Origin: an uncultured Gemmatimonadales bacterium
GTDB lineage: Bacteria; Gemmatimonadota; Gemmatimonadetes; Longimicrobiales; RSA9
NCBI GenBank assembly: GCA_963798085.1
Contig: CAWCRS010000007.1
Span: 1,472,001 to 1,536,000 of the forward strand
DNA: 64,000 nucleotides
Direction of reading: 5' to 3'
The notes below the pieces were generated by a model. It worked only from the letters and a program-made list of their open reading frames with translations. It ran no database searches and was not told the DNA's origin. Shown piece by piece: positions 150-63,629 of this stretch (position 1 is the first letter of the stretch; every line of letters begins with the position of its first letter). The position numbers and the translations under genes are program-made.

Positions 150-1787
150 ATGGCTGCAAAGGAACTTCAATTCGATACCGATGCGCGATCCGCGCTGAAG
201 CGCGGTGTGGACCAGTTGGCGCAGGCAGTAAAGGTCACGCTCGGCCCCAAGGGCCGCAACGTGGTGATCGACCGGAAATTCGGTTCGCCCACGGTGACCA
301 AGGACGGAGTTACGGTAGCCAAGGAAGTCGAGCTGCCGAATCCAATCGAGAACATGGGCGCCCAGATGGTGAAGGAAGTCGCCACCAAGACCAGCGACCT
401 GGCCGGTGATGGAACCACCACCGCCACCGTGCTGGCACAGGCGATTTTCCGCGAGGGGCTGAAGAACGTGACGGCCGGTGCCAACCCAATGGCTATCAAG
501 CGCGGTGTGGACAAGGCCGTCGAGACGGTGGTCGCGGAGCTGAAGAAGATCTCGACGCCCACCAAGGGCAAGAAGGAGATCGCACAGGTCGGCACCATCT
601 CCGCAAACAATGACAAGGAGATCGGTGACCTGATCGCGGACGCGATGGACAAGGTGGGCAAGGATGGCGTGATCACGGTCGAGGAGGCGCGCGGCCTGGA
701 GACGACGCTGGAGACCGTCGAAGGCATGCAGTTCGACCGCGGCTACCTCTCGCCCTACTTCGTCACCGATCCGGAGCGCATGGAAGCGGTGCTCGAGGAT
801 GGAATGGTGCTGATCCACGACAAGAAGATCAGCTCCATGAAGGATCTGCTGCCCGTGCTCGAGAAGGTGGCGCAGCTGGGCAAGCCGCTGCTGATCATCG
901 CCGAGGATGTCGAGGGTGAGGCGCTGGCCACGCTGGTGGTGAACAAGCTGCGCGGCACGCTGCGTGTCTGCGGCGTCAAGGCGCCCGGCTTCGGCGATCG
1001 CCGCAAGGCGATGCTGCAGGACATTGCCACGCTGACCGGTGGCCAGGTCATCAGCGAGGAAGTCGGCTTCAAGCTGGAGAACGCGGTGCTGAGCGATCTG
1101 GGCCGCGCCAAGCGCATCGTGATCGACAAGGATAACACGACGCTCGTGGACGGCGCTGGTGAAAGCGACAAGATCAAGGGTCGCATCGATGAGATCCGTG
1201 TGGCCATCGACAAGTCGACGTCGGACTACGACCGCGAGAAGCTGCAGGAGCGCCTGGCCAAGCTGGCGGGCGGCGTCGCAGTGATCAACGTGGGCGCGGC
1301 GACCGAGACCGAGATGAAGGAGAAGAAGGCGCGCGTCGAAGATGCGCTGCACGCAACGCGAGCCGCGGTCGAGGAAGGCATCGTGCCTGGCGGTGGCGTC
1401 GCATTCCTGCGCATCCAGGACAAGCTCCGCGAGATCAAGCTGAGCGATGTCGATGAGCAGATCGGCGTGAACATCATCCTGCGTGCGCTGGAGGAGCCCA
1501 TCCGCCAGATCGCTGCGAACGCGGGCATGGAAGGCTCGATCGTGGTCGACAAGGTGCGCTCCAGCAAGAGCCCATCCTTCGGCTACAATGCCCAGACGGA
1601 CACCTACGAAGACATGGTCGAGGCCGGCGTGATCGACCCGACCAAGGTGACCCGCACCGCGCTGCAGAACGCGGCGTCCATCGCCAGCCTGCTGCTCACC
1701 ACCGAGTGCGTGGTGGTCGAGAGGAAGGAAGACGAGAAGACCCCGCCGATGCCCGGCGGTGGCGGTGGCATGGGCGGAATGTACTAA
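150..1787 (+). CDS. groEL: Chaperonin GroEL
   Basis: AAKELQF start, [18 protein letters not shown] and GGM tail; GGAGG RBS. Confidence 0.99.
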
Positions 1788-1799
1788 CAGGTTCGGAGG

Positions 1800-2340
1800 C
1801 GGTTCTCGGGCCCGGACACGGGCTGGGAACGACAACGAATCTTCGGTCGGGAGGCGGGGGTCCTGCAAGGGGCCCCCGCCTCTGCCTTCTCGGAGGCAGG
1901 GGTTCGTCCGGGGACTCGACCGAACGTCGTTGCTCGGGCCGGTGGCTGGAGACTCATTGCCTGAGGAACGGTTCCTGTCTGCAGCTGGCTCGCATCCGGA
2001 CCGGGACGCGCGCGGCCACAGACGATGCCGGCGGCACGCGCGTCCGCCATTGCACTCTAACAGGCTGCAAGGGGGTTCCATTTGTCACCCGCTGTCGCTG
2101 CGTACGCCGACGACTGTCGTACACGCCGCTGTTAGTGCCACACCGGCCCGGGGCCGCAACGCCGCCGGTCCGTTCCCGGCAAACCAGTCCGGGCAGCGCC
2201 GTTCGGTCCGTATCCGTTTCCAGCAACCAGCCCGGGCAACCAGCGCCAGCAACGCCGTTCGGCGTGTAGTGCGTTCCCCAGCAACCAGCCGAGCAAACGC
2301 CGTTCGGTCCGTACCGAGCAACGCATTCTCCGGACAACGG
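1800..2340. repeat. Intergenic cluster of degenerate repeats (core CAGCAACGCCGTTCGG) forming two oppositely oriented arms
   Basis: About four imperfect tandem units at 2156-2325 and reverse-orientation units at 1806-1950; segments recur at 20930-21325. Confidence 0.75.
1851..1882 (+). terminator. GC-rich hairpin downstream of groEL, probable terminator
   Basis: GAGGCGGGGGTCCT-GCAA-GGGGCCCCCGCCTC stem with GCAA loop; weak U-tract. Confidence 0.55.
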
Positions 2341-2342
2341 AA

Positions 2343-2373
2343 CGAGCCCACGCGCCTGCGCTGCGTGGGCTCG
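2343..2373 (-). terminator. Hairpin downstream of the SodC-like gene
   Basis: CGAGCCCACGC...GCGTGGGCTCG perfect 11-bp stem. Confidence 0.5.
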
Positions 2374-61926: not shown

Positions 61927-61930
61927 TGCC

Positions 61931-63016
61931 GTGGACGAAGACCAGACCTTCATGGAGCGCGCGCTGCAGCTCGCCGAGGCGGGCTGGGGTCGCGTGCATC
62001 CCAACCCGCTGGTAGGCGCCGTCCTCGTCCGCGACGGCGAGGTTGTTGGTGAGGGCTGGCACGCCGAGTACGGGGGGCCCCACGCGGAAGTAGTGGCACT
62101 GCACGCCGCCCGCGAACAAGCGCGCGGCGCCACCCTCTACGTCACCCTCGAACCCTGCCGCCACCAGGGCAAGACGCCGCCCTGTACCACCGCCATCATT
62201 GCAGCCGGCATCCAGCGCGTGGTCTTCGGTGCCGCCGATCCCAGCCTCGAGGCGGGCGGCGGCGCCGGCGTACTCGAACGCGCCGGCGTGGAGGTGCGAG
62301 GCGGCGTGCTGGCCACCGCCTCGCGCCGCCTCAATGCCGCGTTCCACCATGCACTGGAACGCGACCGGCCATTCGTGGCTCTGAAGCTGGCAATGTCGCT
62401 CGACGCTCGGCTCAGTCGTGAAGCCGGCCGGCGCACTACCGTCACCGGAGAAGGGGCGCAGGCCGAGGTGCACAGACTGCGCGCCGGTTACGATGCGATC
62501 CTTATCGGACGCGGCACGGCGGCGGCCGATGACCCGGAACTGACCGTGCGCGGGCCGCTCGCGCCACGCAGGCCGCCGGTGCGCATCATCTTCAATGCCG
62601 CGGCCGGACTATGCTCGGATTCGCGACTCGCGCGCAGCGCAGCGCAGGCACCGGTCTGGGTGGTGGCCGCGGCTGACGCAGACCCGGAAGAGCTTCGTCG
62701 CCTGCAGCAGTCCGGTGTGCGCACCCTGTGCACGAAACGGGCAGAGCATGGCGTGGATGTGAACGAAGCCATCAGCCTGCTCTGGCGGGAGGGTGTGCGC
62801 TCGATACTCTGCGAAGGCGGCGGACGGTTGGCGGCGTCGCTGCTCGAGGCCGATGCGGTGCAGCGCATCTACCTGTTCGTGGCACCCGTATTCTTCGGCG
62901 AGGCCGGCACACCGGCGTTCCCGCTGCACGGCCCCGGCGGCGGCTGGGTCATCACCGGAACGCGCGCCATCGGCAGCGACGTGCTCTTGACACTCGAACG
63001 TTTCGTCGCAGGATAA
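61931..63016 (+). CDS. ribD: Bifunctional riboflavin biosynthesis deaminase/reductase
   Basis: PNPLVGAV, HAE, TLEPC.H.GKTPPC, KLAMSLD, EGGG. Confidence 0.97.
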   Translation: MDEDQTFMERALQLAEAGWGRVHPNPLVGAVLVRDGEVVGEGWHAEYGGPHAEVVALHAAREQARGATLYVTLEPCRHQGKTPPCTTAIIAAGIQRVVFGAADPSLEAGGGAGVLERAGVEVRGGVLATASRRLNAAFHHALERDRPFVALKLAMSLDARLSREAGRRTTVTGEGAQAEVHRLRAGYDAILIGRGTAAADDPELTVRGPLAPRRPPVRIIFNAAAGLCSDSRLARSAAQAPVWVVAAADADPEELRRLQQSGVRTLCTKRAEHGVDVNEAISLLWREGVRSILCEGGGRLAASLLEADAVQRIYLFVAPVFFGEAGTPAFPLHGPGGGWVITGTRAIGSDVLLTLERFVAG

Positions 63017-63020
63017 CGCC

Positions 63021-63629
63021 GTGTTCAGCGGAATCGTCGAGGAAACCGGAACCGTGCGCGACGTGACCCGGGTCGAGAACGGCATGCGTCTGCGCATCGC
63101 GGCCCGGATCGCGCTCGATGAGCTGGTACCGGGTGCATCCATCGCCATTAATGGTGTGTGCCAGACCGTGGTCACCCGGTCGGACGCGGACTTCCAGGTC
63201 GAGGCTATCGCCACGACACTGGGTCGTACCACACTGGGTGCGCTCGCGGCCGGCAATGCGGTGAACCTGGAGCGGGCACTCGCCTATGGCGAACGCGTGG
63301 GTGGCCACCTCGTGCAGGGCCACGTCAATGGCGTGGGCACGGTGACCGCTGTGCAGCGCGAGGGCGAGCACGTGCTGCTCGATGTGCGCATGCCGGCCGA
63401 CGTCGCGGACGTTACCGTGCTGCACGGCTCCATCGCGATCGATGGCGTCAGCCTCACGGTCAATGCACTGCCTGCTGCGGACTGCGTGCAGGTGGCGCTG
63501 ATTCCGTACACGTGGGAGCACACGACTCTCTGCCGGCTGCGGCCGGGCAGCCGGGTGAACCTGGAAGGCGACATGATGGGCCGCTTCGTGACGCACTGGC
63601 TGAAGCGGCAGCGCGGCGAGGGGGTATGA
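63021..63629 (+). CDS. ribE: Riboflavin synthase (alpha chain)
   Basis: MFSGIVE, SIAINGVC, VNLERAL, GGHLVQGHV, GSIAIDGVSLTV, VNLEGD. Confidence 0.97.
   Translation: MFSGIVEETGTVRDVTRVENGMRLRIAARIALDELVPGASIAINGVCQTVVTRSDADFQVEAIATTLGRTTLGALAAGNAVNLERALAYGERVGGHLVQGHVNGVGTVTAVQREGEHVLLDVRMPADVADVTVLHGSIAIDGVSLTVNALPAADCVQVALIPYTWEHTTLCRLRPGSRVNLEGDMMGRFVTHWLKRQRGEGV

Follow-up and report, generated by a model that had tools for sequence, protein, structure and literature searches.

G-to-A and C-to-T consensus errors in R10.4.1 assemblies have been described that come from reads of the G-carrying strand and are gone on amplification, and among six shared error motifs four were typed as N6-methyladenine (6mA, or m6A) and one as N4-methylcytosine (4mC) (Liu et al., Hammerhead, PMC11610603). 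The minimal error motif reported as common across species is RA/TY, and the motif table of the same study includes CRATGTC in Citrobacter freundii and CARATG in Acinetobacter junii (Lohde et al., PMC11610573); pentanucleotide cases have also been reported (Chiou et al., Modpolish, PMC10687267). Here we analyse a stretch of 64,000 nucleotides (the window) on contig C7 of the genome of an uncultured Gemmatimonadales bacterium (GCA_963798085.1, here G000; 6.23 Mb in 12 contigs), in which AAT (Asn) codons flanked by C and G stand where protein families have conserved Asp. These changes are almost certainly errors of the assembly, not of the organism, as G stands at most of the sites that independent public contigs cover. 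On balance, we favour the explanation that they are nanopore miscalls of the G preceding a methylated adenine, CG(m6A)TG, and that the mark would be written by a solitary D12-class methyltransferase.

An earlier, sequence-only reading of the window had listed 15 positions, all of which are as given (13 in-frame C-AAT-G codons, CCA-ATG at 487 and CATTG at 1022), and 11 of its 12 gene names are backed by NCBIfam, the open reading frame (ORF) called pfkB having no match at E<=1e-30. Its claim that Asn replaces conserved Asp holds for all 13 codons, each of which is Asp in the ortholog of G010, a relative from another genus. Eight of them also align to the same-genus relative G001, where seven are Asp and one is Arg. 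Genome-wide, CAATG occurs 15,736 times against 11,975 expected (Markov model, z 34). In ortholog tests, for which genes were called with our own hexamer model, relatives were sampled at 40-560 kb each and well-conserved aligned positions were used, Asp lies opposite 100 of 332 C-AAT-G codons, compared with 48 of 616 other AAT codons and 166 of 2,218 AAC codons, the context dependence that had been predicted. By gene strand, Asp is found opposite 86 of 229 C-AAT-G codons in plus-strand genes and 14 of 103 in minus-strand genes, over a background of 7-8%. The same test gave 1 Asp and 25 Asn among 31 C-AAT-G codons of G001, and 5 Asp and 4 Asn among 22 of G010. The Asp-to-Asn pattern is far beyond chance. 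Codon reassignment, which the earlier reading had set aside, is ruled out, since the other AAT codons face Asn in 442 of 616 cases and so resemble AAC. Silent sites in Asp and His codons gave no sign of motif avoidance, and none of 20 premature stops was a CAT-TGA, which says little, given how seldom the source dicodon occurs.

Contigs of an independent public run, X1, were compared over 40 of the window's 64 kb, and all figures for this run are among the matches listed, which are the longest contigs. X1 reads G at 17343, 59418, 59513, 60395 and 62594, and A stays at 45119 and 46414; thus G is found at five of seven covered CAATG sites, including all three covered sites of the named Asp codons. 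Fourteen of the 16 listed pieces were counted (left out were one with five differences and one with an unlocated single difference; one retained piece also has one unlocated difference). In these, G stands at 4 of 6 CAATG adenines versus 1 of 631 other adenines (p 1e-8), and none of 24 covered CGATG/CATCG sites differs. The silent changes in other frames that had been proposed are seen in dxs (GCA-ATG, 17343) and pfkB (TCA-ATG, 59513). The CGATG motif also gains an extra A, a feature absent from the sequence-only reading: both covered CGAATG sites have one A fewer in X1, and the extra letters at 14159 and 16336 frameshift xseA and dxs in the window sequence. The reverse form, CATTG, is indeed part of the pattern, but it is much less often wrong on the window strand, and all three located sites stay T in X1 (8332, 14101 and 61128). 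The suggestion that miscalls had produced many ATT Ile codons therefore went too far, as many ATT codons in CATTG are genuine. In total, 5 of 10 located CATTG and CAATG sites are unchanged. Runs X2 and X3 yielded only foreign contigs, and no RNA run with window sequence was present, among the matches listed. The sites concerned, all on the plus strand, are as follows.

59418..59420, +, AAT codon of the pfkB-type kinase, miscalled G; G in the X1 contig, Asp in G001 and G010
60395..60397, +, AAT codon of purM, miscalled G; G in the X1 contig, Asp in 17 of 19 relatives, the remaining two using AAC codons
62594..62596, +, AAT codon of ribD, miscalled G; G in the X1 contig, Asp in G001 and G010
17342..17346, +, silent GCA-ATG of dxs, miscalled G at 17343; A>G is the sole difference of a 295-base X1 contig
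59512..59516, +, silent TCA-ATG of pfkB, miscalled G at 59513; G in the X1 contig
16334..16339, +, CGAATG with an extra A, shifting the frame at the start of dxs; X1 contig one letter short at 16336
14157..14162, +, CGAATG with an extra A that frameshifts xseA; X1 one letter short at 14159, downstream ORF from model position 69
60053..60055, +, AAT codon of purM, presumed miscall; Asp in 19 of 19 relatives
16756..16758, +, AAT codon of dxs, presumed miscall; Asp in G010
46278..46280, +, AAT codon of cmk, presumed miscall; Asp in G001 and G010
34802..34804, +, AAT codon of argR, presumed miscall; Asp in G001 and G010
12583..12585, +, AAT codon of rny, presumed miscall; Asp in G010
39134..39136, +, AAT codon of argG, presumed miscall; Asp in G001 and G010
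7762..7764, +, AAT codon of pheS, presumed miscall; Asp in G010
15666..15668, +, AAT codon of ispA, presumed miscall; Asp in G010
63255..63257, +, AAT codon of ribE, presumed miscall; Asp in G010, Arg in G001
63327..63329, +, AAT codon of ribE, presumed miscall; Asp in G001 and G010
8329..8333, +, CATTG (Ile ATT), genuine; within a 238-base X1 contig with 0 differences
61125..61129, +, CATTG (Ile ATT), genuine; within a 217-base X1 contig with 0 differences

One further insertion, an extra C at 47438 near the start of the rpsA ORF, is missing from the X1 contig; it lies outside a CGATG context and therefore represents a second kind of insertion error.

The pattern is tied to contig orientation. 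On the plus strand of the contigs there are 9,082 CAATG versus 6,654 CATTG, and 13,802 CGATG versus 16,122 CATCG, while control pairs are even (3,302 versus 3,385; 15,703 versus 15,618). CAATG exceeds CATTG in 107 of 122 bins of 50 kb (control, 60 of 122), a result that holds in both GC-skew classes, and the orientation odds ratio (OR) is 1.66 (1.59-1.73) when stratified by gene strand and frame. CGATG is the top orientation-biased 5-mer, and it alone stands out among 64 xGAyz motifs (z 23.5, next 2.7). Because the orientation of a contig is a product of assembly, this is not a bias that a cell could follow. Replication-strand bias was ruled out by the same sign in both GC-skew classes, the skew being weak here, and a longer or bipartite motif by orientation ORs of 1.40-1.75 at offsets -8 to -2 and +6 to +13.

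By the orientation difference, at least about 2,400 bases are wrong genome-wide, and with ortholog rates the estimate is 3,500-4,800, corresponding to 18-21% of plus sites and 3-7% of minus sites. A first estimate of 7,700-9,000 wrong sites, which assumed the CAATG/CAATC baseline of relatives, was dropped because the ortholog data give few errors in the minus orientation. The assembly is rich in frameshifts, with 80 breaks in 529 loci, 65 of which are +1. GAATG/CATTC is present at 14 of 58 tightly located +1 frameshifts, where 1.4 were expected. The located +1 frameshifts are also rich in CGATC (15 of 58 windows, 4.7 expected) and AGAATG (6, 0.3 expected), and CGATG may be only part of the true modified site.

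As the earlier reading had held, the change thus lies at the DNA level, is independent of frame, is bound to CGATG and is an artefact of basecalling or consensus, on the combined evidence of the X1 contigs, the orientation bias and the orthologs. Since C-R-ATG fits the published RA motif exactly, we infer that the adenine of the CGATG strand is marked, that the reads divide about evenly and that the consensus choice depends on orientation. By this analogy the modified base is quite probably the adenine of CGATG, rather than a cytosine. CAATG at conserved Asp codons would then be a consensus error at the 5-mer CGATG, where nanopore basecalling would misread the G preceding the methylated adenine. 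If the CGATG strand alone were modified, errors would be confined to reads of that strand, the pile-up would be near 50:50, and the consensus could come out wrong at the fractions of plus and minus sites given above. An extra A is sometimes inserted at the motif. The enzyme that might mark this one strand is encoded outside the window.

G000:C5:177724-178788 (L050:1495-2559), D12-class adenine methyltransferase; sole PF02086 match in G000, E 2.4e-26, over the cut-off

The S-adenosylmethionine-binding and DPPY motifs of this protein are intact and do not vary among the 15 orthologs compared (the protein itself counted), in which 112 of 354 positions are invariant. It covers positions 1-327 of a 646-position PADLOC model. 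A 644-residue double methyltransferase that adjoins a FokI-type nuclease matches it with the N-terminal half, at 31.5% identity. The N-terminal half of M.FokI recognises GGATG (PMC3985630). No nuclease was apparent beside the D12 gene in G000, where the ORFs of the 1.5-kb flanks were read by eye and no nuclease-family scan was made. The gene has one match each in 61 of 72 family genomes, and the same neighbours recur in 15 loci; neighbouring families gave distant matches only, in 2 of 16 genomes. A PDB sequence search and the ESM Atlas provided no specificity for the enzyme. This orphan is somewhat more probably than not the writer of the CGATG mark.

The distribution of the signature among family genomes is consistent with this assignment. 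G010 (98% complete) carries the D12 gene and has an orientation OR of 1.95 (1.47-2.59), whereas G046, which has no D12 ortholog, shows no bias (0.78, 0.52-1.18). Six other carriers in few contigs have ORs of 0.84-2.18 singly, weak results from small samples, and 1.52 (1.17-1.98) when pooled. In G001 (250 contigs) the gene is present and the bias absent, as it should be were this assembly built from short reads; order-level genomes, at 40-60 kb each, are too small for the orientation test. Co-occurrence favours the D12 orphan as the writer, resting on one negative genome. G010 (L024-L033, L055-L062) is a second public family genome with the CGATG-to-CAATG artefact. Two of the relatives, G047 and G048, hint at GGATG too.

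G000 encodes several other modification enzymes. A type IIG-like methyltransferase precedes a small ORF and an SNF2-type helicase (G000:C1:262758-269680, L046:8759-15678), and the conservation of the methyltransferase in five of five relatives is unusual for a restriction-type gene. A small contig carries a Dcm-like C5 methyltransferase fused to a helix-turn-helix domain, with Vsr and an EcoRII-C-type nuclease (G000:C11:1-8569, L049). A type III Mod/Res pair adjoins a Fic protein and an SNF2 helicase (G000:C8:328243-337439, L048), an EcoRI-like enzyme is found on contig C1, and a type I HsdM is split over several frames, as a pseudogene or by assembly error (G000:C3:931841-932825, L051). The family set comprises 72 genomes, and the C5, type III, EcoRI-like and IIG-like genes were tested in five relatives each, including G010. 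The C5 enzyme has no match at E<=1e-10 in G010 or the four other relatives (4mC families were not searched in G010), and neither the type III Mod, of the N6/N4 family, nor the EcoRI-like enzyme has a match in any of the five, G010 included, where the cut-off for the Mod was likewise E<=1e-10.

The same artefact and the same m6A mark could come from another writer, namely the IIG-like enzyme (Eco57I domain, C1:262758), the type III Mod (C8:331397) or a gene that was not assembled. At asymmetric sites, enzymes of types III and IIG modify a single strand, the genome is only 90% complete, and the IIG-like gene is present in G000 and all five relatives tested, including G010. However, G046 has the IIG-like gene and no signature, the signature-bearing G010 has no match to the type III Mod, and the nearest characterised type of the D12 enzyme already recognises an xGATG site, so that another writer appears unlikely, if well worth bearing in mind. 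The sequence-only reading had instead blamed a modified cytosine (5-methylcytosine, 5mC, or 4mC) in CATCG. The search for C5 and N4 methyltransferases that it recommended did turn up the C5 enzyme, with its Vsr and EcoRII-C-type nuclease, and the type III Mod, and a published enzyme modifies CAT(m5C)GATG, an 8-base 5mC site (10.1101/2024.07.15.603628). Yet that 8-base site needs fixed flanks, of which none were seen; the C5 enzyme is Dcm-like; the sole N6/N4-family match is the type III Mod; neither enzyme is matched in G010; and published errors of this class, G to A, sit on the G-carrying strand (PMC11610603). A modified cytosine is improbable.

More improbable still is a modification other than methylation, such as 7-deazaguanine or phosphorothioate, on the G or next to it. 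The misread base is the G itself, and errors of this kind are reported to arise from modifications on which basecallers are untrained (PMC10687267), but the G-before-A pattern is described as common in ordinary strains (PMC11610573). G000 has one TGT-family match, strong and full-length, and therefore no second paralog with that query; phosphorothioate genes were not searched for. Finally, the Asn codons might be real in the DNA, produced by a context-specific mutator and either tolerated or edited in RNA. Half of the 10 located CATTG and CAATG sites are unchanged in X1, which is possibly a different strain, and silent C-ATT-G is raised in the artefact-free G001. Against this, G is found at all three covered named sites, the bias tracks the arbitrary orientation of contigs, and the frameshifting insertions of the motif in dxs and xseA do not occur in the independent contigs. 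Real Asn codons are hardly credible, and recoding and RNA editing are not supported, in agreement with the doubt already expressed about editing and real fixation.

A number of points weigh against a nanopore miscall caused by the D12 enzyme. Each site is covered by one X1 contig at a depth of 2.4-5.9, the record of X1 does not give its library, and the other differences in its contigs mean that it may be a different strain. The nanopore origin of the assembly is likely, as judged from its 12 long contigs and the type of error, and the type and position of a modification are reported not to be nameable from mismatch patterns (PMC11610603). Most +1 frameshifts fall outside the motif and therefore have other causes. 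An identity of 31.5% does not fix specificity. Among the six further carriers only G048 passes alone, and G049 is a carrier without signal (0.84); GGATG is raised as well when the six are pooled (1.40, 1.07-1.84). A single family genome without the enzyme, G046, was tested, and it may simply have been polished. The presence of the IIG-like gene in all five relatives tested and the incompleteness of G000, discussed above, point the same way.

Apart from the artefact, silent C-ATT-G Ile codons are raised in all nine carriers examined. ORs are 1.8-5.1 in eight carrier relatives (two intervals include 1), with 2.79 (2.06-3.78) in G001, and 3.3 in the low-error orientation of G000. The class is not raised in genomes without the D12 gene (G046, 1.28; four pooled order-level genomes, 1.11). 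The other silent class, NCA-ATG, gives no support for a footprint (2.50 in G001 versus 2.21 in the control), and the carrier genomes in this comparison are kin, not independent. The excess of C-ATT-G is a lead for a possible real mutational footprint, not a result. It is conceivable, though we put it forward only tentatively, that there is a family-wide system, in which a solitary, vertically kept methyltransferase of the FokI-half type would mark CG(m6A)TG on one strand at about 34,000 sites per genome, as a housekeeping mark like those of Dam and CcrM but at an asymmetric site, and would leave a real mutational footprint.

The practical consequence is that thousands of substitutions and many frameshifts in this genome are spurious. 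Lost catalytic Asp residues, odd Asn residues and broken genes should therefore be checked for CAATG, CATTG, CGAATG and CATTCG, and the same check is due in relatives such as G010 before any biological reading. The contig-orientation test detects artefacts of this kind from an assembly alone. The artefact also points to a motif for a methyltransferase that is still uncharacterised and occurs in 61 of 72 genomes of a largely uncultured family of soil bacteria, a prediction that is inexpensive to test. The artefact is of a known kind, and the epigenetic lead is modest.

Other compositional features of G000 were also observed. GAGCTC is depleted threefold genome-wide (1,404 versus 4,194 expected) and CTAG sixfold, and TGG codons are rare behind a codon ending in T (GAT-TGG 59 versus GAC-TGG 1,474). 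No FliK was detected with PF02120.

The class of artefact is known; the motif and the candidate enzyme were not found in print. No CG(m6A)TG motif was found in the literature on CGATG, nanopore and m6A methylomes or on methylation in Gemmatimonadota and Longimicrobiales, nor in the main text of the Nanomotif preprint; REBASE and preprint supplements may hold it. Like the methylation-induced errors described for R10.4.1 data, those in G000 are G-to-A and C-to-T changes in a short fixed motif with an ambiguous purine before A, are not found in independent data, and leave some sites wrong and others right. They differ in the bare 5-mer CGATG, in the additional A, and in having been read here from assembly orientation and orthologs. 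The load is also different, with thousands of wrong sites in this genome compared with isolate means of up to a few hundred, and a maximum of about 2,300 per class, in PMC11610573.

The D12 enzyme resembles the N-terminal domain of M.FokI in its PF02086 match, its DPPY motif and its N-half match, and the predicted target shares GATG. Unlike FokI-type enzymes, it has a single domain without a second-strand partner, no nuclease was seen beside it in G000, and it is single-copy among conserved neighbours across the family; at about 31% identity, its specificity is only predicted. Dam, CcrM and CamA of Clostridioides difficile are orphan methyltransferases conserved within their lineages, and the D12 enzyme is likewise a solitary, vertically kept adenine methyltransferase found in most genomes of its clade. 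The sites of Dam and CcrM are palindromes, whereas CGATG, like the asymmetric site of CamA, would stay marked on one strand.

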